Shown here one piece after another: positions 10,212 through 54,169 of a stretch of DNA of 64,000 nucleotides (position 1 is the stretch's first letter; every line of letters starts with the position of its first letter). The notes beneath the pieces were generated by a model. It searched no databases. It saw only the letters and a list, made by a program, of their open reading frames with translations, and had not been told where the DNA came from. Source of the DNA: Curvularia clavata (lineage: Eukaryota). A program made the position numbers and the translations under genes. Where the stretch lies: the NCBI GenBank assembly GCA_023920165.1, contig CP089275.1, positions 558,001-622,000 of the forward strand. Reading direction: 5' to 3'.

Positions 10212-10820
10212 ACAGTGGCCTATGCACACCATTTGCAATATCCCTGCCTGACACGAGTTACGAAGACTAGCATTGAAGAGGCGTTTGCAAGACCATTGTG
10301 GGTCTCCTAACAGTACCGTAGGCTGGTGCTGGCGTGCTCGCATTTTTTTTTTCTTCGTATAACTTCCCTCGAATTCGAATAGTAATAATAATGTCCAATG
10401 AAAATCCACGTCTTCCTTTTGCACTATCGCCGTCGTTTGCACCGTCATCGTCACCATCACATGTGGGTGGCTGCCTGGTGCTGCCTGCTTAGTCACGCCA
10501 GACCCTGCCAAGCCCCCTCCAACTTTTCAGGTTGTCTAGGCCAGGCCAATCCCTCTGTTGTCCACCTCACTCTACCCACACAATCTGTGCACAACAACAA
10601 CGCTTCAATCAAGCACACTCGCATCGAGTGCAGTCACATCCGAACAGTCAAGACGCCTCACGGCACTCGTGGTGACAGTTGTTTACGCACACACTCACTC
10701 AACTCACTATCTCAATTGAATCCACTATCCAAGCGAAAGCTCGCCTCTTCCATCTTGCCGTGACCAAGCTCATCACTTGCGGCCAACAACACTTATCGAC
10801 AGCTAGGCACCGTCATCAAC

Positions 10821-12738
10821 ATGTCTACTTCAGCCGCTGTCGACGCTCTCCTCGAGGAGACGGCGCGCGAAATCGAGATGGACCGCGAGAGGCGCGCCAG
10901 CCAAGCCGATATCGAGATGCGCGACGTCGACAGCCGCCGAGACGACCGCGACCGTAACCGCGACCGTGACCGTGACCGTGGGCGCGACCGCTACACAGAT
11001 CGCCGTGACCGCCGCGATAGGAGCCGAGACCGCCGCGATACAAGCCGAGACCGAGGGGGTAGTCGCTATCGTGAGTCTAATGGTGACCGGCACGGCAGCC
11101 GTGACAGAGACAATCGACGAAGCCCCCGATCGAGCAACTGTGCTAACACAGATGAAGAGCGTGATAGGTATCGTCGCAGCAGCTCCCGTGACCGACGCGG
11201 AGGCCGCGGTCGTGATCGTGGAGGCGACTTCTACGTCGGAGGTGGACGTGCCCGCTCCCGCTCCCCTCGTCCCCGTGGCGATGATAGGTACCGTGATAGG
11301 TCCCGCGACCGCCGCCGAAACAGTGGTGACTATGGCCGCAACAGCCGCCGCCGCTCGCCCCCGCCGCAGCCTGAGGTTACTGACGATGACCGTGACAAGC
11401 GCACAATCTTCGTTCAGCAAATCTCTGCGCGTGCCGAGACCCGCCATCTACGCTCCTTTTTTGAGCGAGTTGGCCCTGTTGTGGAAGCCCAGATTGTCAA
11501 GGACCGAATCACTCATCGTCCCAAAGGGTAAATATTCCCCTCTCTCCCTTCATTTCATCCACCCTAACTAACATGTTCAGCGTCGGATACGTCGAGTTCA
11601 AGGATGAGGAGTCTGTACCCAAAGCATTGGAGCTGACTGGTCAGAAACTGAAGGGTGTCCCCATCATTGCCCAACTTACTGAAGCCGAGAAGAACCGTGC
11701 CTCTCGCCCCTCGGAGGGTGGTGCAACGAGTGGTGCAAACGGCGCCCCATTCCACCGTCTTTACGTTGGCAACATTCATTTTAGTGTACTTGAGGATGAC
11801 CTCAAGACGATTTTCGAGCCTTTTGGCGAGCTCGAGCAGGTCATTCTTCAGCGCGACGAGATGAACCCTGGCCGCTCCAAGGGATACGGTTTTGTTCAGT
11901 GAGTGATACCGTTGTTCTCCCCACGAAAGAAGATTACTAACATGGGTTCAGATTTGTCGACCCCGCGCACGCCAAAACTGCTCTTGCAGAGATGAACGGT
12001 TTCGAACTTGCTGGTCGCCAGATCCGTGTTGGCCTTGGCAACGATAAATTCACTAACGAGTCAACCGCCAACCTGCTTCGCACCTTCAACCAGCAGGCCC
12101 AGTCTTACCAGGGCTCTGCGTTCAGTGGAGCGGGCGGACGTGGTGCCTATGCGGGTGGTAGTGGTGGTGTCTATGACCGTGGCAAGGATGACCCACGTGG
12201 CGTTAGCGGTGCTTCTGCTTTGGACGACACTGATGTCGCTGGAGTCAATTTCAAGACTTACGATCGCAGCAAGCTCATGAATGCTCTCGCTCGCCGTGAC
12301 AACCCCGAGTCCGCGAATCAAGGCGCCCAGCCTGTTGCCGCCAAGCCCCGTACGCCCGTCGTCGATCAGCCTCAGCCATCCAAGTGCATCAAGATTGAGA
12401 ACGCCTTTGATCCGGAAGAGTATGTTTTCCCTTACCCTTGAAGCCAATGTTGCTAACAATCCAATAGGGAGCAGCGCAACTATGGAGATAATTGGGTCAA
12501 AGACCTTGAGGTCGAAGTTAAGACTGAGTGTGACAAGAAGTATGGCAAGGTCGTCCACATTGCTGTAGACGCCAATAGCGAAGGCGATATCTTTGTCAAG
12601 TTTGACTCTGTCACCGGTGGTGAGAAAGCTCTTCAAGGTCTGAACGGTCGTAACTTCAACAACCGCAAGATCCGCGCATCCTACGTTGTCGATAAGATCT
12701 ACAACTCCCTTTGGGGCGCTGCTGCGAGTAAGTTTTAG
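10821..12738 (+). CDS. RBM39/CAPER (Rsd1/Pad-1)-like splicing factor: RS/RD region, two RRMs and a C-terminal UHM-type RRM, 4 exons
   Basis: RD/RS-rich N-terminus, DDDRDKRTIFVQQ, VGYVEF, RLYVGNIHFS, GRSKGYGFVQ, MNGFELAGRQIRVGLG and ASALDDTDVAGV. Stop TAG at 12736-12738. Confidence 0.93.
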
Positions 12739-17447: not shown

Positions 17448-19753
17448 CTACCCCCTAAACACCGACTTATGCGTTAGCGGCGAATCCAGCTGTACCGGTG
17501 GCCCTCTTGACCTCCCTCCTCTTGTCAGCGGCGTGCGCCCCGTACAAAAAACACAAACGTAGACGGGCGGCAAGCTCCCCTTGTCCAACCCAATACATGC
17601 AAGATGTAGCCACATGCTACAAGACTCGCACTGCAGCATAGCTTTTTCATCATCGTCGTTGTCGCCATTGCAAACACACCGTGTGCTTTGGGACGAGACG
17701 ATACTTCGGTCAGTCGAAGGGGTGGTAGTTACAGAGCGATTAGAGTGAGGAGGATCGAGATAACTGGGGTTGTTCGTGTTGGAGTTGTTGTTGTTTGGGA
17801 ATTCAGCGGAAGCAGCAAGAGCCCAGCGTTGGTTGCGCGCTTTGAGCGTGGCTTGAGAGGCACAAGCACGTTCTGGAAAAAAGGGGGGCCCCCGAGTTAG
17901 CAAAGCAAGGAAAGGAGAGAAATTTCTAGCTTGCAACTGCCCTACCGATGCGTTGTTGGCGTGCCCCGACGACTTTTTTCAGCGCGCCGAGAGCGTCGCC
18001 GGGCGAGTCGGGCATGTGTTGGTCCTCGATGTTTCTGGAGTGCTTGGTCGAAGCTGAGAGATCCATTGTGCCGAGTCGTCGGGTCGAGTTGTCGCTTGCG
18101 GATCGGCCGGCCAGACGTAGTTTGTCCAACGAGGGCTTGTCGATGGTTCCTGCGACGGGACGGGAAGCTGATCGTGTCATTTTAGGAGGAGGATTGATCC
18201 GTTCGTGACTATCGCTATCCGCACGTGCATATTTCGGTGCTCGACGCTCAGGTTGTGGGACGGTAAAGGACGTCTTGCGGCTGATGGTTGCTGCTGGTTC
18301 GTCGTCTTCCGACTCACTATCATCCACCTCGTACAGACCGGGGTATTGCCGCCGGAGTTCTTGCTGTGAAGATTGGCGTAGAGCCTTTGGAGTCTTATCA
18401 TCATCTATAGCAGGTACAGTTTCTGTACGAGCACGACCAGTCTCGTCAATAACAAGGCGTGTCCGTGGTCGCCGTATTTCCGGAATAGACTTGAGCGAAC
18501 CGCCACTTTGACGCTTGAGCGGTGATGGACGCCGTGGTATGTTCGAGGCATTGCCCGGGGCGGTTGACCACGATTCCAGAGGAGGTACCTTAGACATCCT
18601 TATTCCACCATCGGTGTTACTTCGATGAAGTACAGGCCTCACGTCTTCGACCGAGCCAGAGGAAGAATTTGTATTGCTGCGAGAATGCTGGCTCCTCGCC
18701 TTCTTTGCCATTTCTCTTTCCGCCTGTGCATCCCGCAATTGCGTCTCATACGGCTGTCTTAAGCTCATGTCAATGTTCGACAGTTGGGGCATGGCACCAA
18801 AAGAAGCAGTCATGTCGGGGTGGGAGAAACTAAAAAGCATGTTGGGATCTACGCCAGTGGTTGCGGATGCGAATGAGCCTGGTCTTGACATTTGCCCCTG
18901 CTCCATGTGGCAGTTTGCAAACGACATGGGCCCCGGCGAAGCCTGGAAACTCTGAAAGCCCGGTGTCTGCATGATATTAGCCGCAGGGTGCATGCCCTGC
19001 CAGTTCATATTCTGGTCCATTCTCTGTGGTGTAGGGGCAAATGCGTCTACGCCCATAGGCAAATCAAGATCCATTTGTATGCCGTCATTCGCCGGGTCCC
19101 AGAAGAGCCTTGATTGCGGCATGGGTGGCGCTGACATGGAATCATGGCCAGGAAATTGCATCATATCTGGTGTATACTGTAAATTGCCGAACCCAAACGG
19201 GGTTTGATCGAAGAGAGCTTCTGACGGCGGCATCTGGCTGGGTGTCCTATGTATTACAGTAGCTGGCGTGGCTACTCCCTTCCCTGCGCTCTGCTGTAAA
19301 TTCCTCCTCGACGAATCATCCCTTGTTGGGGGCGGTGTCTGCATTTGTGAAAAGTCCATGCTGATAGGCCGTGACGAGGCGAAATGGTGCTGCGATGGTG
19401 CTGCTCCAACCTTGTTCAGCTGGCTGGGGTCCGGCGACGATGCCAGTCTGCGTGAGACGTCGACCGGCGGCAGGGGCAAATTCTGAGGAGCAAAGTGGTT
19501 GACATGGAACTCGGGGTCTTCGGGGGTGCGAACGGGCTGGCTATACGAGCTCGACGGCCGGTCTATGGGCGTCGATAGAGCGAACAGGGGCGCTTGGACA
19601 GGGGTTTGCTGTGCATTAGGTAGTGGGGTTGCCCAGGCGTCGAGAAAATGCGAATGGGGAATCGTCTCAGTTTTAGGAGTCTTGAGGTTTGAGTCCGGGA
19701 ACGTCAACGACTCTGGTGTTGAGGATGGACTTGGTAGAGGCCAGTCGGTCGAT
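17448..19753 (-). CDS. PHD-finger protein with a long disordered Pro/Ser-rich N-terminal region (5' exon not resolved, probably within 19.8-20.2 kb)
   Basis: C-terminal CVC...MLQCESCSMWLHLACIG...YVCVFC. Intron 17873-17945 joins the 593-aa ORF to the PHD exon in frame. Acceptor at about 19754 with a GCTAAC branch point. Confidence 0.85.
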
Positions 19754-40470: not shown

Positions 40471-41039
40471 AATGCTAGTTTTGATATAAAATTCGTCCGT
40501 TAAAAACTTCATATCGTCCATTACCATTGTTTCGATAACATCTGGGATCAGCAGCACCTTCGCATGAGCGGGGTGGCAGGTTGAAATTCGGATGGTAAGT
40601 GGGGTAGAGCCTTGGCCGAATCGGCCTATCTGCACTTGCCCCTCATCGCTATCAGCACGTGTGAATAGTTCTGTCCTTTCCCCCTGCTTTTGACGATGCA
40701 AATGGAGTCCAGCATACTGAGTTAGCCCAACTGTATTGACACTGAATATGACTGCCGAGCTATCACTTCCTCATACCGTGCGATAAGATGTCAAATTCAT
40801 AAGCCGGTCCAAAGGCTTAACCATGCAGAGTTCATACATTGTAAAGAATGTTAAATTCATCAACAAGACGAATGAGTGTATATCTACCGATCTACTAGCA
40901 CACCTAGTAGCAACAATAGTATATTACATTGACTGACTGAGCATTCCAAATGTATCCATACGCCAGACCATGCTATCGCTAATCAACAAGACAATGATTG
41001 TACAGGCAACACGTCCTTCAAGGAGCATGGCTGGCAATC

Positions 41040-41882
41040 TCAATTACGCGGCTTTCTCCACAGCTCATCCATATCCAGCTGCTGCTGAGATCGTACACCG
41101 TTGGTGGACTGTGAGGCAGAATACTCGATGCCGCAAGATCCGCGGTCGAGAGCCAGCGTGTTCAGATCCCAGTGTAGTTGCTCTTCGGGATCTGTAGCTA
41201 AACTGGTACGTGTGCGACCCTGAGGTTGAAGCGGGACATGATCGGCTGTCGATGTGTTCGACGCCATCAGCGAGAGTGATAGAGAGTCGAGCTCGTTGGC
41301 AAACTCCATTTCTTCTTTACTAGCTTCCATGGCGGAGCAAATGTTGCTTGGGCGCGTTTTGGCCTTGAGCTCCATCTCGTAGACTTGCTGGTCACGGGAA
41401 AACTCTGCTTCCAGTTGTCGATGTTCGGCATACCATTGATCGTACTGCTCCTGTGGCATTTGCTCGATCGGTGGGTATAAGGCGTTGTGCTGCGCTTGTC
41501 GCTCTTCCCATATCTTGGCCGCCTCGGCTTGGATGCATTCGTGACAGATAAAGGCAGCTCCTACGGTACTCCCATAAGGCTCGACGCAGTTTGCGCCACA
41601 GTCTTCAACCAAATCTGTCCGGATGCGATGCGAGCACAAGAGTTGATGGTAAAGACGACCTTGGCAGGGCGCGAATCGCTTTGACCGTACATTGTTGACT
41701 GTGGGTGCCGAAGACGAAGGTTGTGTGGAGGTGGCAAAGGGCGAGTTTGCGCCACCGCTCTCTGAGCTTGGCGAGCTGGTCCAACCCCATCTACATGCCA
41801 TGACGAGGTTTGCGTGAGACATAACGTCGTTTGAGACTTTAGAAGTCGTTGCAGACCGGAAAGCGCTACTTGAGAAATCCAT
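41040..41882 (-). CDS. Hypothetical protein with a Cys/His (putative zinc-binding) domain, family member 1
   Basis: Open frame from MDFSSS. Contains PCQGRLYHQLLCSHRIRTDLVEDCGANC...FICHEC followed by a helical Glu/Gln-rich region. Confidence 0.8.
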   Translation of the reverse strand: MDFSSSAFRSATTSKVSNDVMSHANLVMACRWGWTSSPSSESGGANSPFATSTQPSSSAPTVNNVRSKRFAPCQGRLYHQLLCSHRIRTDLVEDCGANCVEPYGSTVGAAFICHECIQAEAAKIWEERQAQHNALYPPIEQMPQEQYDQWYAEHRQLEAEFSRDQQVYEMELKAKTRPSNICSAMEASKEEMEFANELDSLSLSLMASNTSTADHVPLQPQGRTRTSLATDPEEQLHWDLNTLALDRGSCGIEYSASQSTNGVRSQQQLDMDELWRKPRN

Positions 41883-42653
41883 GTTGAAGGTGTGCAAAGT
41901 CCAAGTAGGAGTTGAAGGGTATGTATACGGCAGTGTGTCTGCTGACGACACGTGGTTGCCTTGGGAAGGTCCAGATATAGTGTACAAGGTAATCCAAAGA
42001 ACGAAGTGGTTTCCGTTACTGAAAAGCTAACAAAGGAAGCGGTCAAGGGCGTGGTAAAGCAGTTGACGTATTTCGTATGGTCTTGTGAAAGCGCATCGTG
42101 TGTGCACAGGGCACTTGCAGTCGTGTACAACTAACGCTAGCTATGGCAAAGGGCAGGGTCGGTTATCAGCGCCACTGTTGAGCAGCCAAGCGGAAATGTC
42201 AAGACAGAGGCGGACCGATGGCGATGCTTAGGCGGAGGTGCTAACAGAAGCCAGATGAATGATGTGCTGCTGGGATGGAAGGTTGCGGACGAGTGAGAGT
42301 TGATGAGTCGCGACGCGCTGTGCCAGACTCGTGATGGCGCTAAGCCTCGCCCGGCCCGATGACGCTATGGAGGGTTCGAGTTTCGTGCCGACCCCCAGCC
42401 TTCCGAGCCCTGTTGTTTGCGATTAGACCCTAGCAAGTTGTGCGAAACAAATCAAACAGAACGTAAAGTGGACTGTGCAAACTTTTAATCACCATATATC
42501 TTCATGTCCATGCGCCTTATCAGGCGGTATACGGCTGTGCGGATGATCAGGAGGTGGTGGCGAAAAAGCAACAAGAGAAGACCAGTCACTTGACAGTTGT
42601 TTCTATTGCATCTCATTCCCCTAAATCTCCTACAAACTGTTGATATCAGACCC

Positions 42654-44373
42654 CTAGATAAGGAACCTGAAACCACGACCTTGCCCACCACGCGGTACGC
42701 CGTTGATTGCACCCTCGACGTACTCTCCGCGATCCAATTTCTTGTTGAGTCGCACGAGAATGATTCGCATAATGACTGTCATGATGATTGCCAATGCCGC
42801 CGTTGCACAATCTACACTCAAGGGCACAGTCAAGTTTGGCTGGCCCTTCTTTGGCTGTGGATACATGTAACTGGCGTAAATGGAGCTCGAGTTGCTGACC
42901 GCGTTGATGAATGCTAGTGCTGCCGCTCTCTTGGCAGGCGGGCGCGGTAGAGAGTTGGAAATCCAAGCCAGAGCGACAACGTAGCCCGTGTAAACTCCTG
43001 GCACCATGAGCATCATGGCGACATATCGAGGCGCTGTAGAGTGTGTGGCGGCGGCGAGAATGAAGGCTACCACGCCTACACAGAGAGGAATAACGATGTG
43101 GAAGAAACGTTCACCGGTGCGGTCGGCATGCCAAGCATTGAGGTAGGTTGTGATGACCGCAAGGACATAAGGCGGGGCTGTAAGCAGCAGCGTTTCGATG
43201 TTTGGATATCCAAGCGTCTTTACGACAGTGGGGAAGAAGTTCGTGACCGAGGCTGACGAGACAATGGAAAGAAGCAGGATTGTCAAGACCCATGTCTTGA
43301 TGTCCAGCAAGGCCAGTTTGAGGCCGTGGAAGAAAGTCTGCGACTCTGAAGATACCCAATCATCTTCACCAATGTCCTCTTCTAATCGGTAAGCAGCAAG
43401 CTGGCGTTCTTCTTCACTCAGCCACGACGTTGTGCGTGGGAAGTTTGGAAGGATAAAAAATGCACACATGGCAATAGCCACAGTGATGATACCCTAGGAC
43501 TAGTCAGCAATCTCTCTTTCCAAACCCGTCGGATTATCTCACCTCAATTATGAACACCCAACGCCATGACCTCAGCCCTTGTGTTCCATCCATGTTTTTT
43601 GTGATGCCTGCCGTGATGAGGCCGCCAAAGGCACCCGAAATTAATGATCCAGAGTACAGCACTGCTGTCCTGAAACCAAGCTCTTTCCTGGTGTACCATG
43701 TACTGAGATAGAACAAGCATCCCGGAAAATATGCCGCTTCTATGAATCCGAGGAAGAAGCGACATACCACCAGTCCAGCAAAGTTTTGACATGCAGCGGT
43801 AGCTCCGGAGATAATGCCCCAAATAATCATGCAAGTTGGCAAATATATTGCGGGCTTACCGGTCTTGTTGAGAAAGAGATTCGACGGGATTTGCATGAGG
43901 ATGTAGCCGACAAATAGGATCGAGACGGTTGTCTACCCTGGGTCAGCATACAGACTACCCTATTGTGCATAAGGTTTCGCTGCCATCGTACCTGATACTG
44001 CACGCTCGAGAGGTTCAACTCATCCTGGAGACCTGCCAGACGTACGGCTGCAATGTTGTTTCTGTCAAGGTAATCTACCAAGATTAGCATCCGTTTTGCT
44101 CAGCGCGTCGCCAAATCGATCACACTTACTCATGATATACATCAGAATTATCATTGGAAGGAGTCTGGTATCCACCTTTCTCCTCAACCGCTTCTCTGCT
44201 TGCTCTCGTTGCTCGGCCGTCATAGCAGCTACCAGTGGTGGCGGCTGCAACTTTCTCGTTGCCCCATCAGTGCCAGCACCCGCTTCCAGTGTCGTAGGCG
44301 CAATTCTGTCGTCTGAAATTTCTTCCACAGAGGCCTTCTGGTCGGGATCGACCACAGTTGTTATCTCCACCAT
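42654..44373 (-). CDS. MFS transporter, anion:cation symporter (Dal5/Tna1-like) family, 4 exons
   Basis: KVDTRLLP, YLDRNNIA, CRFFLGFIEAAYFPG, WYTRKELGFR, WRWVFIIEG, ILPNFP and AKRAAALA. Confidence 0.94.
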
Positions 44374-45199
44374 GGTTACTCAAACCGCGTGCGTGATGTC
44401 GCAGCTGTGTGTAAAGCAGAAGGTGCGACGTCACCAGCTCAGCGAAAAAGGTGAAAGACGGCAGAAAAGATGAGAGACAAGATTCACCAAGCAACATGTC
44501 AGGGCCCCAAGCTTCCACTTATACGAAGCTTGCCTGCACGTTGGAGCACCATGGCTGGGGTAGCTGCAAGCCATGTACGTCGCCAACTCTCCGCACTGGC
44601 CTAATTACGCATGCATTGTCCCACCACGAGCCTGTACCGACATGCGTACTATAGGGACAACGGGCCGCGGTCGAGGTCAACGAACGTAACAGCATGCAGG
44701 GCAATGGGTGATTGGCCGCGACCACCATGATGAACCAACGCTATCATGCGGTGTGGGGAGGGATGACCAAAGACGGGATGGTGGGTGCCCCGGCTAAGGA
44801 GGATAATATCAGATTGCGGGGTGTTGATCGACCGAGAGGGCCAAACGTCGGTTACAAATTCCGGGGTCACGGGACGGTCAACAATGCGGCAAGCTGCAGC
44901 CGAGTGCTGCGAACCAGTTTGTTCAAGTTAGTTAGATAGCAGAGGCCGATATGACTAACTAATGTCAATGTTGGCTGGAATTCGCTGTCTCTGAATCAGC
45001 ATGTGACTAGCCATCATCATTCACGGGACATTGTATGCAACTATGAGAACAAAAAATAACATTAGAGGAAACTTCTTCGGCACCAAACCTTCATATAACC
45101 AGTTTACCAATCCAACTCCAGTATAGATATCACCGCTGATCCTACACAGTCCCATACCATATATACGCGCTCTTTACTGCGCCCTCATCCTTACCCGTC

Positions 45200-45502
45200 T
45201 TACTCAACAATAGCACTACACGATTGAAGCCCCTCATTCTCAATTCTCGACTTATACGTCGCTCTGCAATGCTCGCTAGTCAAGTTCTCGTACTCACCGT
45301 TGAAGTGCTTCGTGAAACAATGAGTACAGAGAAACCTCGGTAGAATACTAGTATTGGGGTTGGCGCCCTTACAGAGAGGTGAGCACTTCGAGGACGAACC
45401 ATGATTGAAGGCGGATGCTTGCACAATGTGCCCACAGTTGAGCTCGTGGACTACGGATCCTGCACACGGTTCCAAGTGCTTAGTGATGAAGTTAGGGGCC
45501 AT
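45200..45502 (-). CDS. Small (100 aa) Cys/His-motif protein, family member 2
   Basis: PCAGSVVHELNCGH...CSPLC...FLCTHC, the same ligand pattern as the 41.0 and 52.9 kb ORFs. Start context ttcaaaATG. Confidence 0.7.
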   Translation of the reverse strand: MAPNFITKHLEPCAGSVVHELNCGHIVQASAFNHGSSSKCSPLCKGANPNTSILPRFLCTHCFTKHFNGEYENLTSEHCRATYKSRIENEGLQSCSAIVE

Positions 45503-45722
45503 TTTGAAGTTAGTGTTGAAGTTATATAGTCGAGTTGAATACTAGTGTTGGTCAGTTGAATGCTTTGCCACAATAACCGGAGGGGAAACCTGGGTGATAT
45601 ACAATCGAGCGATGATTTTTAAACTACATATTTTACACTACAAACAATGTATGAGGCTAGCCCCAAGCATCATGACGTCCCACAATAAGCTTTTTGATAT
45701 CCCGTGCTGTGTTTCGCGCTAT

Positions 45723-46982
45723 TTACATCGGTGGCGGGTTGAGATCAAGGCCCTCGACAGTGAGCTTGAAGCTGTCCATGCGCGAATAGCTTCCTGCAGA
45801 ATCAAAATCAAGTCTGCCTCGTTCGCAGTCTTCAAAGTCGACTTCGGTGACAATGAGCTCATCCTCTTTTTCCCAGACTGGCCCAGCAAGCACTTCACCA
45901 AGAGGCGATACGATCATCGAGCCACCACGGCAGACATACTCCTCGCCATCTGCAGACGATGAATGAGGTTGCGAAAAGAGCTGCTGTTTGATGCTGGGTG
46001 ACTCTTCTGTAGAGTCGATTGCCGAGGAGTCGCCGTTGATCGTCGAAGCATGTCCTTTGGGGATTGGCAGGCATATCTCATGGCCCTCCTCTGTTATCGT
46101 AATGGTGCTTCGTCGTCGCGCAATACCACTTCCTTGCTGAGATATTCTTCTTCCAACTCCGCTGCTGCTCGAAATGCTGGGTGAGCGGGCTGTCTCTGTC
46201 TTCTTCCCACCTGATATCCATTCCGGAAGATGCTTTTTCTTAACACACTGGTTTGAGCTGATAACGAAGCAGCGCCCCTCGCATCCGACGGTGCGCATGA
46301 GCGCCGCCCATGTATCGCGTGCGTCTGCTGTTGGTGCAAACCAGAGATTGACATTTTGGCTGTAGAGACTCTGTCTCAGCAGCGGCATGTAGTTCTCCCA
46401 GCAAATCGCTGATCCCATGCACAGCTTCACGCCCTTGATCTCGGTCGTCACAGCCCGAAGAGTGTTCGCGCTGCCCATCCCCCAGACCAACCGCTCACTT
46501 CCCGTCGGCATCAACTTCCTCCTCTTGCCGATCACACCCCTCTTCGGGTCTACAAATACGGATCCGCAATACAGGGTCCCTCCAGACTTCTCTACCAGCC
46601 CCGTCACGATGAAGACGCCTGTTTCCCTTGCGATTCTCTCCAGCTCTTCTCTCGTTCCATCACCCCTGTACTCCTTTCCTCGGGGTAGTTCGAGCTTTCG
46701 GTCAACCCAAGCTTCGCCAGCGCCACTCGGCGTATCTCCCATGTCGACAGCATCGTGGAAATAGTGTAGAAACTGTTCACGACCTTCAGGTGCGCGTGCG
46801 CCAACCGCCGCACCAAAAGAGCACGTGCGAGGATATCCGCCCAGATAGGCTTCTGGAAAGAGGAGAATGTCTATTCCCTGGGCTGCGGCACGCTTGGTAG
46901 TAGCTTCAAGAGCTGCCAGAGTTTCCGCAGTTGTGGATAGAGTGCGGGACTGCGCGGATGCGATCTTGAGAATCTGCGGCAT
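45723..46982 (-). CDS. Nitrilase / carbon-nitrogen hydrolase (Nit1-like)
   Basis: Catalytic E-K-C triad in [21 protein letters not shown] and [10 protein letters not shown]-terminal [10 protein letters not shown]. Confidence 0.94.
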
Positions 46983-47500
46983 TGCGTCGGTGAATTGAAT
47001 CGAGACGAGGTGATGCACAATTGATTAATGACCAGGATACTGAGTTTATATACGATGGGGTGAGAGTAGATTATTTATATACGCGCCTTTGACACATTCT
47101 GGGATGACGGGAGAGTAGCTGTCTTGGTTTACCCCACTGTGGCATTTATTGCCCCGCGCACCGGACAGTGACGGGAGACCGCGGCAATCTGCACGACTTC
47201 GTATACACCGACTAATTAGTGAGTCAAAACATCACCAAATTCTGATCTGAGAGCTCAAGTCGCGAACAGAATGGAAGTCATGAGAGGACGTTGAGCAAGC
47301 AGGGATGTAGTGGAGCCTCTAACTCCAACTCCACTACGACGTCACAGTATGGGTAGATAGCACTAGCAGGACGAGAATTTCTTATTGTCCGCGATCATTC
47401 CACGTGTTACACAACAACACCTTCCATATATCTCACAAAAACCATCGCGCCGTATCCAAGACACATATTTTCGAGAAAGTCTGGAATACCAGTACCCAAA

Positions 47501-48481
47501 ATGTCATCCTCCACCGAGCTTGCGACCCATCTCCAAAAACTCATACCAGATTCACATACCCAACTCCGTGACTCTGTCCTACCATCATTATTGCAATCAA
47601 TACATGCCATCGCAGGCCACCTACGCACATCGCCCAGCGTAACACAAGTCGGTACAGCCAATGCCTTTGGCGACGACCAACTAAACGTAGACGTACTCGC
47701 CGAGGAAGCCATCCGAAAGACCATCAACGATTGTCCCAGTATAGTAACTGCCAGCAGCGAGGAAGACCCAATTGAGAAATCTTCCAAGACAAGCAATAGC
47801 TCAGAGGATGGCGAGCAATACACCCTAGCCTTTGACCCTCTCGACGGCTCTTCCATCATCGCCCCCAACTGGAGCGTAGGCACCATCATCGGAATATGGA
47901 CAGGATCCTCAGCCCTCAACTCACCCCCTTCCACGCACCAAATCGCCTCTATCCTCGGTGTCCTTGGCCCTCGCACCACAGCCATCGTCGCCATCCGCCT
48001 ACCCAACACCCCAGGCACCTGTTTCGAAGTAAGCTACTCCGACTCAGGCACGATGCACGTCGTCCGAGCAGACGTGCAACTCGCCGCCCCAGGAACCTTC
48101 AAGACACGGTACTTCGCACCCGCCAACATGCGCGCAGCCGCCGACGACGAACGCTACATGTCTCTCATCACGCGCATGATTCAGCAAAAGTACACTTTGC
48201 GGTACAGCGGGGGCCTAGTCCCAGACGTCGTTCACGCCCTCGTCAAGGGCCACGGCGTCTACATTTCACCTGTGACGCAGCAAAGCCGCGCCAAACTACG
48301 CCGTCTGTATGAACTAGCGCCCATAGCACTCATTCTCGAATGCGCGGGCGGTGCAGCACTCGACTCGGCAACTGGGATGCCCGTCTTGGGCGAAAACGTG
48401 GCAGATACCGATGAGCGGGGCGGCTTGATATGCGGTACCAAGGAAGACGTAGAAGCTGCCAGACTGGCGCTACTGGGGTAG
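47501..48481 (+). CDS. Sedoheptulose-1,7-bisphosphatase-like protein (class I FBPase superfamily)
   Basis: NAFGDDQLNVDV, ASSEE, FDPLDGSSII, NWSVGTIIGIW, YTLRYSGGLVPDV and KLRRLYELAPIA. Confidence 0.9.
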   Translation: MSSSTELATHLQKLIPDSHTQLRDSVLPSLLQSIHAIAGHLRTSPSVTQVGTANAFGDDQLNVDVLAEEAIRKTINDCPSIVTASSEEDPIEKSSKTSNSSEDGEQYTLAFDPLDGSSIIAPNWSVGTIIGIWTGSSALNSPPSTHQIASILGVLGPRTTAIVAIRLPNTPGTCFEVSYSDSGTMHVVRADVQLAAPGTFKTRYFAPANMRAAADDERYMSLITRMIQQKYTLRYSGGLVPDVVHALVKGHGVYISPVTQQSRAKLRRLYELAPIALILECAGGAALDSATGMPVLGENVADTDERGGLICGTKEDVEAARLALLG

Positions 48482-49328
48482 ATCAGGGTGTTGGCGTTGA
48501 GTTTAAGCAACGACATTGCAGTCATACGTAGTGGTACACTATCGAAGCAAGGTCCCTTTTTTTCTGCACTTCTATTGCTTGTATGGTTCTCTCCATGTGT
48601 AGATCTTTCTGGGCGAAAAGCACCAAGACGGCAGTGGGAAACCGTGCGTGCATTGTTAGACCACTTTTTTTGCTTCTAAACCACGTGCTTCGGGGCCTTT
48701 CGCGGCCGTATTTTCCTTTTCTCCTCCCCACATTCGTCTCCAGATCAGCAAGTGACAGCACATCGCAATTTAGTTAATCGCCGTTAAGCAAAATGTCTCA
48801 AGGCGAACTGACACTGCCGTGCTCTGACAGTGCTGATCGCAGGTCCCGGCATTGAGACTTCCCGCGTGACACTTGCATGGTCCCTGTGTTTGCCCCATAA
48901 TGGGGACGATTGCGTGATAGATTTGGAATGCAAAATGTTTGATAGGCGATGTCGTATTGTTGATCTTTGGGGTGATCTTGAGTTCCGTAGATATGCAGTA
49001 TTGTGGAAGAGGAGAAGAATATGTTTTGATGAGAAACGAGTGTCTTGAGCGCTATTTTACGAAATAAGGGGTATATACATGTACGGTGCTCTATATTGAT
49101 TAAAAAAAAGTTCAAAATACCGCCCAGAAATATGTCATCCATGTGTTCAGCCTTGTTTTTGCTTCAGCATTAACCTTCCGAAGCATGCGTCGTGTAAATT
49201 CAAAAATTCGTCAAGTTTGTAATCATGCGCTCCTGGCGAAAAGGAAATATAATGGTATATGGCTCCAAAGTGAGGGAATGTTGTACAAGATGCGCTAAAG
49301 AGAGGAAGCGTGGGGAAGGGCTCCGTCT

Positions 49329-50874
49329 TCAAAGAGTCCGACCGGCTTCGAGATCTCCTTCACGGGCCCGGGATACTGAGGGCCCTCTGCTGCCTGGTCG
49401 TAAAGCAGCCCGTACACTCCCCCAGTCTACTCTCTCTCGCCACCTCTGATGGGATTCTGGTAGCGCAGTCAATGCCTTTGTGCTAGCAAAGCTCTTTTGG
49501 CTGCAATCATCCGCCTCTTCAATCTTGATTTGTAGTTTGTGGTTGACGTGTATGCCATGCAGAGGAATCTCCTCATCGCTATTATCTCCACCTCGAATCT
49601 GAGACTGCTGTGTGGAAGATTGCGAGTGTTTCGAGGCGAAGGCATTTGTTGCTAATCTCGACGCATCGGGTGTTTTTCCGCGGCTGAGCTCTCCAGTGTA
49701 TCCAGAACGGCTGGTGTACTGGGTAAGATAGCGGTTGAAGAACACTTTGAGAGAAGGGGCGGAGGCACAGATCACGGCCAGCTGCGCTTCAATAGTGGTC
49801 CAGACCCAGCCGTAGTAAGCGATCCAAGTGATATCATAGGTGACTGCATCACAACTGTCAGCTTCTCGAGTCACACATTCTAGGGGGTATTGCTCTTACA
49901 AAAGTACAGCTTAGTGGCATAGTATGTACGCATCAAGCCACAGAAGCAAGTGATCAGTCCCATGCCAAAGATGCCGCAAAGGGCAAACTTTTGGCGCTTG
50001 CTGATCTGCAAGTTCCAGATCAGCAGAATGGGAAGCATGCAGACAATAAAGTCCTGGACGGAGCTGATGGCTGCGCATGCCACGATGATGGCTCCCTCGT
50101 TACGACACTTCACTTCGTTCTGCAACCTCCACATTACGTCGAAGTAACGCCAGAATCCCTCGACCGGCGTGCAGGTGAAGAGGATAGCAAAGGTGAAGAT
50201 GACCCCGTAGATAACACAGAAGGCAATGGTGCCGTATACCCCTATTGTACACATACAAGGTCAGTGTCAATGTTTTGTTTGGAGATAGTAAATCCTGCTT
50301 ACAGTAGACAAACTGGTTTGTAAGGCGTCCAGTGATGCGGCGATAGAAGCAGAGAATAGAAACCTTGATCAGTGTCGTGGACAGCATATAGTTGAGTTCA
50401 ATAGCCAGGGCGACCTAGAAAAGTCAGCAAGTGCAAAGGAAGATGACCTGGAATGTGGTGGTATACCTCTCGCGTGGTGACTAGAGTCTTCAACGTTTGG
50501 TCCCAGACATGCCACTGGAAGCCGTATGTTCGGATGCCTTCACTTGTGAGTACAGACGATGGCGTAGTAGCGAAGAACTTACCGAGGATGGTTGCTATCA
50601 CCAATCCAAATAGCGGCAACATGGAGATGCTTATCAAGACATCATCGAGCCCAGTGTTCTTCGATATAGCGATCCGGGCCCACATTCGCGCAACATATAC
50701 GAGCAAGGTTACGACCATGAAAACAATGAGAACAATTGGCGCCTCCCATCCTCTCTCCTCGGGGTCGATGTGGTTCGCTTTCGGCCAGCTGAGTATAACC
50801 TCTGGTGGGGGATGGAGTCCTCCACCACGAGCAACGAGGCTGCCGCCATGGAAGCCTTGGCTGGTGGCGTCCAT
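49329..50874 (-). CDS. PTH11-like integral membrane protein (no CFEM), about 5 exons
   Basis: PPPEVILSWPKANHIDPE, ARMWAR...GLDD, YGFQWHVWD, IKVSILCFYRRI, LFTCTP and WTTIEAQLAVICASAPSLK. Confidence 0.9.
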
Positions 50875-52885
50875 GTTATCGAATACGGGCTCGTAAGGTG
50901 AACTGAGAAAAGATGGGAGCAAGATGACAATCAGGCCTCATATCAGAAGGCCCCAAACGTGAAGGGCGGGAACGGCATGTATAAGCCAGTCCGAAAGTGG
51001 CCTCAGAGCCAATGACTCCCTAGCGTGCTGTGGGGTTCACGTCTACGGCAGAGCTAGTTCAAACGCAAGTGGAGTGATCAACAGGATGATACGACACATT
51101 CCCTGTCCACTGGGAACGTATGTGTACGTACATCACCTTTGGTCGATTTCTCCTATGTTTAGTTCGAATCTACTGGGAAATGCAAATGATGACAATTCCG
51201 ATAAGCATCGGTACTTCGCAGAGCCATGAGATACACCATGAGCATTGAGGTGAATGGTAGCGCCTTATGTATGGGCTAGGCATGCATGCTATGAAAATTG
51301 CGAAAGCGAACTCGCGAAAGCGAACGTGAGTGGGTACAGAACACCGGCTTGTGGTCCCTTGTTCTTAATGGTGTATACTCCAACGTGCTGTTCGACACCG
51401 GAAGCGGGTAACCATGGCATCGCACGTGGCATACGTGACACGGTAGTGTGTTGGCGTCGCCCGGCTGCATATGTTCTAGGGTTCAAAACGCCTCTTTGCG
51501 GCAAATAATCGGGTTGGTCGTCTCGTGGTTTGTTTAGATTTGGCCACTTTAGAGAAGCTAAGAATCAGAAAGGCTAGCATACCTTGATCTCTCCACGAGG
51601 CATGTCTGTCGATCCAACTATAGCGGCTCGGTTGCCTGACGGCCCTTTTAGGACTGGCCATGGCGGTCCCTAGAAAGGGATTATCCTTCCGATCGAGCAA
51701 TTACCTCCTTAGCTTAGTAGGTCTGGCAGACCACTAGGATTTCCAACGCAAACAGCCCGCCAAGGCTCAGACCTGATAGTACATCTATGGCTTTTCTGGC
51801 CCAAGAGTTTATCTTTACGCCAGCCAGGGGACCCACTAGATTCATGGGCGAGTTCGGTTGAGATGGCAAGTGAGCCGGGGCAATGACTGCAAGTGTGTGG
51901 CTGACAGATCTAGGCAATGGAAAGAGAGGCGAAGTATTGTACCAGGCTGCCAAATTCTCGCCTCAATATCATGGAGATGCTTAAGCGGAATGGGCGAGCG
52001 GGATTGCGAGCAGGGACAAGGCAAATATCAGTCTTAGAGTCCATGTTTCGCATTGAGATGGATCCACCAAGGAGTTGTGCCCGAGCCGCTAGTGAGCTAG
52101 CAAGATTTGTCGGCAGAGCTCATACTAGCAGTACTGTGCTGGTGGTGGGAGGGGCCATGTCAAACCTTAATTCATGACTACCCAACCACATCCGACTGGC
52201 GTTTTCGCCACGCCATCGCGCAACTTCGGCGACGAACAAAGGGTTAGAGAAGATCGTTTGTAGATCTCGGAACAAAGGAAAAGGCGCGCGTGGTGATGGG
52301 TGGTAGTCCAGGAAGCGTCTATCCGGAGGTTCTTCCTGACTAAGTGCTGACATCATCATCATCATCCTCATCGTCCTCCCCTTGCTCCCGCTGCGCACAG
52401 ATGTCTCAACGCATCCTCGCCCCTGCATACTTGTTGCGCCTGCATCTGCCCTTGTTTTTGCCCTGTTCGACAGTCTGTTTGGCGACCTCTTGGCTTCGCC
52501 TTTTGCCCCAACTTGGCCATAATACAGCCTGCTATTAATTGGTGTTCCCTACGCCGCCAATGGTCGGATCGGGAAGAGTTCCAGCCTACGCCAAGATCTC
52601 CGAGAACGGCTCGGACGATACAAGCCGACGTTTTCCTGTTGCGTGCCTGAAGAACGTGCGGCTAATAGCATGGGCGGACTTGATGCCTATATTTCCTCTC
52701 ACCGGTTGCGTCGATGACTTGAGCCGCAGGGCGAATGCCGAGCAATGTGGTTTTTCGGCCCCGCTGTCTCTCCGCTTGACGTTGAAGCTCAACATGACCA
52801 TGCGTTGGTCATGTGGTTGCTCTATCCAGATCAATATGTTAGAACGTGACAGTCTGTTCCAGCTCAGTGAGGTCTCTTCCAGAGC

Positions 52886-53692
52886 TTAGGCTAGGCTGAA
52901 CGCTTCCATAGCTTTCCGTACCGCCTCTGTTGCCGCGCTTTCAGGAGGAAGATTAACCCAGGTCTCGGCGGTCTGGCCAGGATTTCCATCCATGGCGCCA
53001 TTAACTCCTTCTTTGTTATTCTCAATCCTCTTTTTCTCCTCTGTGGGACCCTCAGCTGTTGACCCACGGAAGTTCAACGTTCGAGGTGTCTGATCCGAGC
53101 CGCTTCGCCTAGGCGTTGATTTTCTTGTAGCCATGCCCGGGCGCTTACGGGGTGTCACGGGCTCCTCTTTCTCACCCTCGTCTTTTACTCCACCAAACCC
53201 ATCCTGCCGCATAAACTGATCAAAGAATTGGAGACGCGGCTCATCAAACTTGGAGACTGCCTTGCAAGCGCGGTAGCCTCTTCGGAGCATTGCTGCGATA
53301 TACTGGTCCGCGACTCTGCGCACTTCCGACTCCTGACTCGACTCGTTTTCCCGCATTGCCTCGTCATGATCCAGTTTCAAAGTAAGACCTTCAAGAGCTA
53401 CTTCGGCGCGCACCACGTCGATGAGACACGTCGGGCAGGCGAACGGATAGCCCTGTACAGGCCGTGCACAGAGCCCACCACAACTTGCCGTGTATTCAGT
53501 CTGGATCCGATGCCCACACTGAAGATCGTGGAATGTTGACGAAGAATTGCAAGGACTGTACATGTCCTGAAATTGTTGTTGGTCCTGTTGCTCCCAGGCT
53601 TGAAATTGTTGCTTCTCAGCCGCAGCCAGTCTCGCGTGGAACGCCTGAATAGTAGCGCGAGCGCTGGCAGTAGTAGCTTTGGTTGTTGACAT
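52886..53692 (-). CDS. Hypothetical protein with a Cys/His (putative zinc-binding) domain, family member 3
   Basis: 268-aa intronless ORF. PCNSSSTFHDLQCGHRIQTEYTASCGGLC...FACPTC, plus the basic segment PRKRPG..RKSTPRR. Confidence 0.8.
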   Translation of the reverse strand: MSTTKATTASARATIQAFHARLAAAEKQQFQAWEQQDQQQFQDMYSPCNSSSTFHDLQCGHRIQTEYTASCGGLCARPVQGYPFACPTCLIDVVRAEVALEGLTLKLDHDEAMRENESSQESEVRRVADQYIAAMLRRGYRACKAVSKFDEPRLQFFDQFMRQDGFGGVKDEGEKEEPVTPRKRPGMATRKSTPRRSGSDQTPRTLNFRGSTAEGPTEEKKRIENNKEGVNGAMDGNPGQTAETWVNLPPESAATEAVRKAMEAFSLA

Positions 53693-54169
53693 TTACGTAG
53701 CTCGTGTGTTGCGATTTTGGTAGGATTCAGAAGCCGTGCGCGAGCTGATTTTGAAGGCGAAAATCCAATGCGGGGGCGATCGACTACTGTCACCCTACAG
53801 CAGCCCCATCTCGCTAACGATGTCGCGTAGGTATCATCTGCAAACGCATGTTGTCATGTCCGTTTGTCGGTCGCATGTTGTCCAGAAGCATAATCTTGAT
53901 GGTTTCTTGATATTTGAATGGTGGTCGTTTGTTTCCGGGTCAGCGGACGACAAGGCCATACCGAGCTCGGCAGCCATCGCTGGGCTAACGTAGGCCCGCA
54001 TGCCATCATCAACCTTCAAGTACAACAAATGATGCCATACCAAGATGGATTCACTAGGATACCCTTCATGTTCCTTGAATGGTTCCTCTATCATGGATGC
54101 AGCAGGAGTCATTGCACCCGCTGAGCAAAACAAATATGATCGTGTGACCTGCTAGTGTGTTTCAAGAGC

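Follow-up and report, generated by a model that had tools for sequence, protein, structure and literature searches.

The known domains closest in form to the proteins reported here are small zinc-binding ones. RING fingers follow the consensus C-x2-C-x(9-39)-C-x(1-3)-H-x(2-3)-[CH]-x2-C-x(4-48)-C-x2-C. Like the RING and SP-RING (zf-MIZ) domains, the family described below has eight Cys/His ligands in four pairs, probably in an interleaved two-zinc arrangement, with one pair, L-x-C-G-H, predicted in the turn of a beta-hairpin and another of the form C-P-x-C. PHD fingers (C4HC3) are also small interleaved two-zinc modules, but their ligand order and spacing differ from those of the family. Treble-clef fingers in general would share with it a knuckle in a hairpin turn and two ligands at a helix N-terminus; however, they form a fold class and not a family, and membership says nothing about function. 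The module here, at ~130 aa, has additional helices and a second predicted site. Finally, there are the DUF-type fungal families, which are similarly small, annotated as "hypothetical protein" (as the present family members are), found in one fungal class, and intracellular, as the present proteins probably are. The present family differs from these in having no Pfam entry in the copy searched, and in its confidently predicted metal-type core.

The locus lies in a 64-kb stretch of DNA from a fungus of the Pleosporales, analysed as a whole and called the window below. In it we find three genes, A, B, and C, and at somewhat better than even confidence we favour the reading that they are selected genes representing three old subfamilies of an undescribed, mainly Dothideomycete family with a probable two-zinc module.

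Three related genes in one window

A six-frame scan of the window with the regular expression C-x(4-8)-H-x3-C-x-H-x(6-20)-C-x3-C-x(8-18)-C-x2-C returned three full eight-ligand matches, all on the minus strand. Gene A (41040..41882, minus strand, 280 aa plus stop codon) is an intron-free ORF carrying the motif C-x5-H-x3-C-x-H-x9-C-x3-C-x13-C-x2-C at 41535..41666. Gene B (45200..45502, minus strand) is a short form of 100 aa plus stop codon, with C-x5-H-x3-C-x-H-x14-C-x3-C-x14-C-x2-C at 45317..45466. Gene C (52886..53692, minus strand, 268 aa plus stop codon) is again an intron-free ORF, with C-x6-H-x3-C-x-H-x9-C-x3-C-x10-C-x2-C at 53426..53551. An earlier note on this DNA had given the same motif coordinates, spacings, and protein sizes, all of which proved exact. 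A, B, and C also share the further likenesses that it listed: P ahead of the first Cys, L-x-C-[GS]-H, and F-x-C-x2-C.

The likeness of the three proteins goes beyond chance. BLASTP between window proteins paired A with C at E=4e-8, B with A at 8e-5, and B with C at 8e-4. A domain HMM matched the A, B, and C ORFs alone within the window (E from 1e-13 to 1e-23, the HMM having been built with A, B, and C included). In a reciprocal test, each profile drew on the orthologues of a single gene, the window proteins being excluded, and all 1364 window ORFs were ranked. These single-gene profiles placed the other two genes at ranks 2 and 3: the C-orthologue profile gave A at 2.7e-8 and B at 0.021, the A-orthologue profile C at 1.5e-7 and B at 3.1e-5, and the B-orthologue profile A at 3.9e-6 and C at 0.13. 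The three proteins thus detect each other, as the relationship claimed in the earlier note would have it, and by sequence comparison they are members of one protein family.

Size, range, and subfamilies

A profile search found 202 representative relatives at E<=1e-3, of which 80 reached E<=1e-10 and 16 reached E<=1e-30; all eight ligands are present in 109 of the 143 newly listed matches. Across these 109 relatives and the three window proteins the spacing is C-x5-9-H-x3-C-x-H-x8-17-C-x3-C-x9-25-C-x2-C, in which H-x3-C-x-H and C-x2-C are fixed and C-x3-C holds in 106/109. Column counts over 125 sequences show the six Cys and two His to be invariant, and the same sequences yield a signature of P before ligand 1, [YF]-H-x-L-x-C-G-H-[RK]-[VI]-x-T, C-G-x-N-C, and P-F-x-C-x2-C. 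The eight ligands and this signature mark the family, and both are present in each of A, B, and C.

The three window proteins fall into three separate clades, each holding orthologues from other species. This agrees with the old duplications proposed earlier, and on these clades A, B, and C are three old subfamilies. The A type is the most conserved, with the motif C-[QR]-G-R-L-Y-H-Q-L-x-C-S-H-R; it has 173 homologues at E<=1e-3, and among the 120 listed the identity is 51-92% and the eight-ligand motif is kept in 119. The C subfamily is confined to Pleosporales, with 22 homologues at E<=1e-3 (identity 41-92%). Its motif is kept in 19 of them, the three exceptions being short and covering only 54-72% of the query. 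For gene B, a word-indexed search gave one close homologue (76% identity). An exhaustive profile search recovered a B-type subfamily, including six representatives with the conserved start M-x-P-x-F-I, and B as an orphan was therefore dropped. The B ligands are invariant in 8/8 B-type proteins.

Each of the 11 clusters for which an organism is named comes from a fungus, a Dothideomycete in 10 cases and a Lecanoromycete in one. No Pfam family matched A, B, C, or the module of their relatives (105 and 125 scanned), and a sequence-profile search of the PDB found no relative, the best match (E 0.13) lying outside the module. The ESM Atlas returned Ascomycota clusters only, none of them named, for gene A, and no usable named match for gene C. 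Within the texts reached by a full-text literature search there was nothing on a family of the A/B/C type, and six locus tags of named members occurred in no paper there. The Pfam and PDB sequence searches thus produced no confident match to a characterised domain, and the earlier description of the family as uncharacterised and taxonomically restricted stands. As judged from these sequences, it is an undescribed, mainly Dothideomycete family of small proteins.

One architecture departs from the rest. P0177 and P0300 are a single 448-codon ORF in locus L021, with a PHD finger after the module, a fusion confined to one cluster among the 105 and 125 relatives scanned. The Pfam PHD model (PF00628) matched only there, at P0177 256-303 and P0300 335-382, both outside the family module; it matched neither A, B, C, nor the module itself.

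The structured module

Gene C residues 36-175 (53168..53587, minus strand) were modelled with AlphaFold2 on the 125-sequence family alignment, giving a mean pLDDT of 91.3 and a pTM of 0.81, with model residues 1-60 at 95-98. The model runs in the order helix, ligand-bearing beta-hairpin, two long helices, R-A-C-K-A-V strand, and final helix. Strands 19-22 and 27-29 enclose a turn that holds C24 and H26; helix 52-73 has C51 and C54 at its beginning, and is followed by helix 82-102 and strand 109-111. A full-length AlphaFold2 model of gene A from 90 A-type sequences has helices 114-134 and 144-175 at pLDDT above 90; its mean is 52 and its Cys/His part is below 50, the A-only alignment being shallow. 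On the module model, the core of the family is an N-terminal module of ~130 aa that reaches beyond the ~45-aa motif.

The earlier note had held the proteins to be unalike outside the motif. For A and C this is wrong: like most relatives, the two have in common a helical hairpin, a segment with a conserved Arg, and additional motifs; K-R-P and a C-terminal A-T-E-A-V-R-x-A-L-E recur across the family. Past the module, A and C continue with a low-complexity basic linker and then a short conserved C-terminal helix. The conserved Arg (108/119 sequences) stands two residues ahead of the column of a ninth Cys, which the note had placed in all three proteins. That Cys is homologous in B and C and invariant in 8/8 B-type proteins, but the Cys of gene A sits three alignment columns further on, and the column is Cys in only 66/113 family sequences. 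Gene B carries the Cys/His motif, then a helical part that is reduced in length, and at its end the strand segment G-L-x-x-C-S-A-I. B-type proteins retain the Arg-containing strand segment, and it is in the window copy that the hairpin is shortened. B is the minimal form of the family, ending just past the module.

The invariant Cys/His pattern looks zinc-binding, as was noted earlier, and the six Cys and two His most likely hold two structural zinc ions. In the model, the position of C-G-H in the beta-hairpin turn and of C-P-x-C at the N-terminus of a long helix suggests a treble-clef-like arrangement with interleaved sites. Site one would be formed by ligands 3, 4, 7, and 8, and site two by ligands 1, 2, 5, and 6.

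Such interleaving is the topology of RING and PHD domains, and L-x-C-G-H and F-x-C-P-x-C resemble ligand pairs 3-4 and 7-8 of RING and SP-RING. On this reading, raised as a possibility in the earlier note, the module would be an atypical cross-braced domain of RING type and the proteins would act as ubiquitin or SUMO E3 ligases. The earlier remark that the pattern fits neither RING nor PHD spacing is upheld across the 109 relatives and three window proteins. It lies outside the RING consensus: pair 1 is C-x5-9-H in place of C-x2-C and stands just 3 residues ahead of pair 2, and the C-x3-C of pair 3 follows pair 2 at a distance of 8-17 residues. In the model, a 22-residue helix begins at the last pair and makes a hairpin with the second long one, after which a further strand and helix round off the module. 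Gene B has a very weak match to Prok-RING_4 (E=1, 9.7 bits, cut-off 27), the sole RING-type match of A, B, or C at E<=10; in the scan of 125 members, RING-clan Pfam models are absent at E<=10, and also from the 25 families shown. Foldseek against the PDB with the 140-residue model gave 0 matches at E<=0.001. No RING chain is among the Foldseek or VIA matches listed, in searches that were dominated by the helical hairpin. We consider a RING-type ligase unlikely.

Linkage around a nitrilase gene

Between A and C lie gene B, a carbon-nitrogen hydrolase (nitrilase-type) gene that served as synteny anchor (45723..46982, minus strand; Pfam CN_hydrolase E=6.7e-36), and genes of unrelated housekeeping types: an MFS transporter, an FBPase-like gene, and a fungal rhodopsin-domain protein. 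The order C - nitrilase - B - A recurs in loci L001 and L009, so that the synteny in relatives raised by the earlier note does exist. All three genes are seen at 2/80 loci, most loci being too short to show all, and two family members lie on equal-sized contigs in each of three named genomes. B starts 223 bp past the nitrilase stop codon in the same orientation, and 210-240 bp past it in L001, L004, L009, and the window. An alignment of the nitrilase-B spacer from four loci shows little conservation, too little to mark the intron described below as shared.

Past the nitrilase stop codon, and 39 nt ahead of the ATG of gene B, lies a 61-nt GT..AG intron (45542..45602, minus strand). It is defined by the joint 45541->45603, CT..AC on the plus strand, in one RNA contig of run X1. 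This contig covers 45363-45541 of the B side and extends over 45603-48766. RNA over the 3' part of B (45203-45362) is missing among the contig pieces listed, which is no proof of absence. The intron belongs either to the 5' leader of B or to a shared nitrilase-B transcript.

These data bear on the possibility that the linked paralogues are one functional unit (a hetero-oligomer, developmental switch, or conflict system), with B made from the nitrilase transcript. The recurring gene order, the close spacing of B, and the single contig joining the nitrilase gene, the spliced intron, and B would all suit such a unit. So would the fast evolution of B and C, with dN/dS of 0.30 and 0.18 (dS being saturated in most comparisons) and identities of 29-52% between relatives. 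However, a contig over two genes is no proof of a single transcript, and the intervening genes are unrelated. B is absent or undetected beside the nitrilase gene in several close relatives (L002, L003, L005, L006, and L021), and L002, L003, L006, and L021 lack B, or A as well as B, at that place. We regard a functional unit as improbable, and read the linkage, conserved in some relatives, as inherited synteny. A more far-reaching version, with a new interleaved two-zinc fold that has no solved relative, a Dothideomycete-specific class of nuclear regulators whose three subfamilies stay linked through joint action, and B dicistronic with the nitrilase gene on the same spliced transcript, seems to us decidedly improbable.

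Metal, expression, and selection

The Cys/His cluster might hold an iron-sulfur cluster, or act as a redox or metal sensor, in place of structural zinc. Six invariant Cys and two invariant His, with a frequent ninth Cys nearby, would be compatible with this, and one of the 125 members has a Rieske_4 match at E=0.011, which is chance-level. A knuckle combined with a helix N-terminus is, though, typical of structural zinc sites, and no Fe-S family motif recurs in the 125 members. We give this alternative very little weight, and keep to structural zinc as the most likely ligand-bound metal.

The genes are expressed, as RNA contigs show. Contigs of runs X1 and X5 span gene A in full without a joint, and likewise span 51583-53900 without a joint, covering gene C in full. 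The joints listed are of GT..AG type on the minus strand in 9/10 cases, and A and C lie wholly, and B partly, inside contigs of a spliced set. Metatranscriptome run X14 gives no more than low-depth cover, over parts of gene A and the genes beside it.

Among strain differences in gene A, 10/11 listed in the CDS and 6/6 listed inside the motif are synonymous. Its dN/dS is 0.04-0.10, again with dS saturated in most comparisons, and over the three genes the values of about 0.04-0.3 must be read with that saturation in mind, as it left 7/12 pairs with no dS value. Together with the ligands kept in orthologues, these figures bear out the selection that the earlier note had proposed, and we conclude that A, B, and C are expressed genes under selection. 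One could still take the ORFs for non-genes, with a motif that arose by chance or from a repeat, and cite the 100-aa length of B, its single close homologue by word-indexed search, and its 3' part outside the RNA pieces listed. Given the conservation in orthologues, the cover by RNA, the bias towards synonymous change, and the profile matches in both directions, this has a negligible chance of being right, and for A and C it is ruled out.

Possible role and meaning

As to function, we tentatively suggest a recognition or adaptor module that would work inside the cell, probably in the nucleus, and would bind protein or nucleic acid without being an enzyme; we think this idea would sooner prove wrong than right. 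Read by eye, A, B, and C show no hydrophobic N-terminus, and the basic stretch P-R-K-R-P...R-K-S-T-P-R-R of gene C looks NLS-like. These features, alongside the PHD fusion in one relative, are weak hints of an intracellular or nuclear place.

Many such unnamed families exist in fungal genomes, and because of this the finding is useful and, without a function, not surprising. Should the zinc part turn out to be a new variant of the cross-brace, the treble-clef repertoire would grow, and should B truly be co-transcribed with the nitrilase gene, the two would form a dicistronic pair of a kind rarely documented in ascomycetes.

What was previously seen as an isolated 45-aa finger in unrelated proteins is corrected to a family that spans the full length and has three old subfamilies. 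Its domain limits and invariant residues are now in hand, along with a confident model of the ~130-aa predicted zinc module. Several hundred Dothideomycete "hypothetical proteins" thereby gain a well-delimited domain family; many plant pathogens belong to this class, as do rock-inhabiting and lichen-associated fungi.

Three related genes and their motif

Genes A, B and C are minus-strand ORFs of 280 aa (41043-41882), 100 aa (45203-45502) and 268 aa (52889-53692), respectively. When the full 64 kb was scanned in six frames with a regular expression, the complete eight-ligand pattern came up three times on the minus strand, at 41535-41666 (A), 45317-45466 (B) and 53426-53551 (C), which reproduced both the coordinates and the spacings of the motifs as first read from the sequence. 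The domain HMM likewise matched A, B and C as the only ORFs of the window. The window is of fungal origin, its genes having their best homologues in Pleosporales such as Exserohilum, Alternaria, Pyrenophora, and Pyrenochaeta.

Whether the three proteins find each other in profile searches, a question raised in the earlier note, can be answered in the affirmative. For each gene a profile was made from its orthologues, leaving out the window proteins, and run against 1364 window ORFs; in every direction the other two genes ranked second and third. The C profile retrieved A at E=2.7e-8 and B at 0.021, the A profile C at 1.5e-7 and B at 3.1e-5, and the B profile A at 3.9e-6 and C at 0.13. Pairwise BLASTP gave E=4e-8 for A-C, 8e-5 for B-A, and 8e-4 for B-C, the last pair being the weakest link. 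This likeness is far above chance, and the pattern first reported is genuine and not trivial.

Family extent and conserved sequence

The three domains and 13 orthologues gave a family profile with which 1.84 billion representative proteins were searched. Thresholds of E≤1e-3, 1e-10, and 1e-30 left 202, 80, and 16 matches, respectively. Among 143 newly listed proteins, 109 have all eight ligands, 13 have the N-terminal half and 21 have neither, some of these last being fragments aligned to other parts of the profile. If the six Cys and two His are taken as four successive pairs, the 109 complete relatives share a firm pattern: pair 1 is C-x5-9-H (x6 being commonest), the H-x3-C-x-H spacing is found in all 109, pair 3 is C-x3-C in 106, and pair 4 is C-x2-C in all 109. 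The gaps are looser, at x8-17 between pairs 2 and 3 (x9 in 74) and x9-25 between pairs 3 and 4. The ligand-region consensus reads P-C-x-x-x-S-x-[YF]-H-[DQ]-L-x-C-G-H-[RK]-[VI]-x-T ... C-G-x-N-C ... P-F-[IVL]-C-x-x-C.

The family is larger than first read, consisting of full-length proteins with a 130-aa module. The view that the three proteins are unalike outside the motif is contradicted by column statistics and models, which place a long helix, a second long helix and a segment with a strongly conserved Arg (108 of 119 sequences) downstream of the last Cys pair. In most full-length members the Arg segment is followed by a helix with D-P-x-L-Q..F-F, the motif K-R-P, and, at the C-terminus, a helix with [ED]-D-[DE]-A-T-E-A-V-R-x-A-L-E. 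The "ninth Cys" reported downstream in each protein does mark a common segment, lying two residues past the conserved Arg, but it is no ninth invariant ligand: the column holds Cys in 66 of 113 sequences. All eight B-type proteins have this Cys, the C orthologue P0019 has Ala instead, and A-type proteins have Ser there and a Cys three columns further on.

A-type proteins have two further His and two further Cys, invariant in 90 aligned orthologues (H23, C30, H237, and C250 of gene A). These form one pair near each protein end, in M-S-H-A-N-L-V-M-x-C and E-Q-L-H-W...R-G-S-C-G, in regions of gene A with AlphaFold2 pLDDT <50, and could make up a third, split metal site.

Comparison with known families

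The domain was first described as unassigned, and it still is. Neither A nor C matched any Pfam family (2025 copy) at E≤10, and the sole match of B was Prok-RING_4 at E=1. When 105 relatives were scanned against Pfam, nothing exceeded the curated cut-off except one PHD finger, located after the module in P0177, and no family was matched at E≤10 by more than two of the 125 alignment members. Against all PDB chain sequences the top match of the family profile had E=0.13 and fell outside the module, and Foldseek with the whole-module model reached E=1.9 at best against PDB. In the ESM Atlas, gene A led to unnamed Ascomycota clusters only and gene C to nothing usable. No paper on the family appeared in the portion of the literature reached by full-text searches.

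An atypical E3 ligase is an unlikely rival reading. Two of the four ligand pairs recall RING or SP-RING, and the topology is probably alike; the module fails both RING ligand spacing and RING profile matching. We regard it as a new zinc-module family, probably of the treble-clef or cross-brace class.

Among the relatives scanned (the sets of 105 and 125) a single domain fusion turned up, and the fused domain is a PHD finger, which reads chromatin. In a close relative, it is encoded at 3538-4881 (+) of metagenome locus L021 as a single uninterrupted 448-codon ORF (P0177/P0300), in which the module precedes the PHD finger at the C-terminus (PF00628, E=5e-6 to 7e-6).

Predicted structure of the module

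With a 125-sequence family alignment, AlphaFold2 modelled gene C residues 36-175 at mean pLDDT 91.3 and pTM 0.81. In model numbering (residue number minus 35), residues 1-60, which include all ligands, score 95-98. A module of ~130 aa with eight invariant Cys/His is confidently predicted. The model has helices at 2-10, 52-73, 82-102, and 117-128 and strands at 19-22, 27-29, and 109-111, the last being K-A-V of R-A-C-K-A-V.

C24 and H26, the C-G-H pair, are in the hairpin turn, and C51 and C54, the C-P-T-C pair, are where the long helix starts. Treble-clef zinc sites are recognised by a knuckle combined with the N-terminus of a helix, and we infer with moderate confidence that these four residues form one treble-clef-like site. 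If so, C13, H20, C36, and C40 would make up the other, and the two metal sites would, at the same moderate confidence, be interleaved as in RING and PHD fingers, judging by ligand positions in the secondary structure of a metal-free model. That the eight Cys/His are putative ligands of two structural zinc ions is a fairly safe reading.

Alignment diversity, not depth, set the quality of module prediction. Modelled from 90 sequences of its own highly conserved subfamily, gene A scored below 50 in the module, compared with 95-98 for gene C with 125 diverse members; in the gene A model, made from A-type sequences only, the zinc region is below pLDDT 50 and helices 114-134 and 144-175 exceed 90.

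Expression and selection

Four public runs were compared with 40900-53900, of which X1 and X5 are contig sets labelled "RNA?". Nine of ten listed contig joints in these two skip short CT..AC segments (+ strand), that is, GT..AG introns of minus-strand genes; the contigs therefore derive from spliced RNA, from a strain ~99% identical to the window. One contig per run spans 40900-43492 without a joint, with the whole gene A ORF inside, and another spans 51583-53900 in the same way around gene C. For gene B, an X1 contig covers 45363-45541 and, past a 61-nt intron (45542-45602), reaches the nitrilase gene; the listed contig pieces do not include the 3' third of B.

The ligand set is complete in 119 of the 120 A homologues listed, in every one of eight B-type proteins, and in 19 of 22 C homologues, the three others being short proteins with 54-72% query cover. 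Among the strain differences listed (a further 153 lie beyond them over the whole stretch), 10 of 11 in the gene A CDS are synonymous, including 6 of 6 inside the motif. In pairs with computable dS, Nei-Gojobori dN/dS came to 0.04 and 0.10 (A), 0.18 (C), and 0.30 (B); with dS at 1.1-3.0, these values are rough. A, B and C are expressed, conserved paralogues of one undescribed family.

Taxonomic range and history

Of 30 representative clusters examined, 11 have an organism name, and these are all fungal (10 Dothideomycetes and one Lecanoromycete), in keeping with the earlier description as lineage-restricted. The Delitschia, Lophiotrema, Stagonospora/Phaeosphaeriaceae, Trematosphaeria, Massariosphaeria, and Karstenula clusters we take to be Pleosporales, one of them bearing the UniRef tag 9PLEO. 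Tothia belongs to Venturiales, Saccharata to Botryosphaeriales, and Vermiconidia to Mycosphaerellales, as presumably does Fulvia fulva; the Acarospora cluster (Lecanoromycetes) is a weak match at E=4.4e-5.

In a FastTree module tree (124 columns, 125 rows, many forks unresolved), A, B and C belong to three distinct groups, each split off by a single branch (support 75, 92, and 99). They are therefore old subfamilies rather than recent tandem copies, which bears out the proposal of old duplications. A is the slow subfamily, with 173 homologues across Pleosporales, the 120 listed being 51-92% identical; C has 22 homologues. B-type proteins evolve fast and have a length of just 100-159 aa, and window B is without ~40 hairpin-region residues present in the others and keeps the terminal segment.

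Synteny and gene neighbourhood

As first described, the genes are interleaved with unrelated ones: an MFS transporter, an FBPase-family protein, and a fungal rhodopsin-domain membrane protein. The last (PF20684; 49329-50937, minus) has four short introns from RNA joints (49844-49899, 50241-50301, 50413-50464, and 50537-50581). The MFS transporter gene (42654-44379) adjoins gene A, so the name "pantothenate transporter liz1" given in the public record to P0033, an A orthologue of 277 aa from Pyrenophora seminiperda, was probably taken over from the neighbour gene and is probably an annotation error. Gene C RNA contigs extend ~2 kb downstream (50947-52886, minus), with a spliced 61-nt intron at 51522-51582 and an ORF at 52120-52548 that has a Met run, no Pfam match, and a 3-nt indel between strains at 52351. 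A further small gene missing from the annotation, or else a long 3' UTR, is the probable explanation.

Synteny in JGI metagenome contigs was anchored on the nitrilase-type gene (Pfam CN_hydrolase; 45723-46982) that separates B from C. We retained 80 loci with flanks of up to 10 kb, many just 1-6 kb long and some apparent duplicates (L007/L009, L012/L013); 13 have at least one family ORF. Synteny of the whole triplet holds in part. All three genes are present in L001 (nitrilase identity 84%; C 3988-4803 (+), nitrilase 10001-11254, B 11495-11719 (+), A 13903-13070 (-)) and in L009 (nitrilase 71%; C-like 3879-4397, nitrilase, B-like 11439-11705, A 18775-19599 (+)). Members are missing in L002 (83%), which has C only, A and B being absent from 8.4 kb downstream, and in L021 (84%), which has the PHD-fused member at the C position and no B. 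L004 (80%) has B and A, its upstream flank ending before the C position; in L011-L014 and L016 (64-65%) a single family ORF follows the nitrilase gene at a distance of 2-3 kb; and L003, L005, and L006 (74-83%) have no family member within their available flanks. Pyrenochaeta sp., Trematosphaeria pertusa, and Lophiotrema nucula have two family members each, both assigned to contigs of the same length (775,085, 2,078,179, and 1,589,828 bp, respectively), which suggests that both members lie on one and the same contig in each species.

B shares the orientation of the nitrilase gene and begins no more than 210-240 bp past its stop codon in the window (45503-45725, minus) and three relatives (L001 11255-11494, L004 5422-5651, L009 11228-11438). 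One spliced X1 contig bridges the nitrilase gene, the 61-nt GT..AG intron and the start of B; the two genes could be transcribed as a dicistron or as overlapping transcripts, but a contig by itself is no proof of one molecule. Linkage is old and recurrent, but short of universal, and a functional A/B/C unit or nitrilase-B dicistron is an unlikely reading.

Proposed role and meaning

Our tentative suggestion, possible rather than probable, is that the family proteins would be intracellular, probably nuclear, recognition or adaptor proteins. The cues for it are an N-terminus without a hydrophobic stretch, the basic P-R-K-R-P...R-K-S-T-P-R-R stretch of gene C, the family-wide K-R-P motif, a disordered linker with a conserved short helix at its end, and the one natural PHD fusion. 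The functions put forward in the earlier note are speculative. An Fe-S or redox site is a very improbable reading of the ligands, and the chance that the family is an artefact is negligible. Unnamed families are numerous in fungal genomes; this one lends itself well to structural work and to an entry of its own among protein domains.
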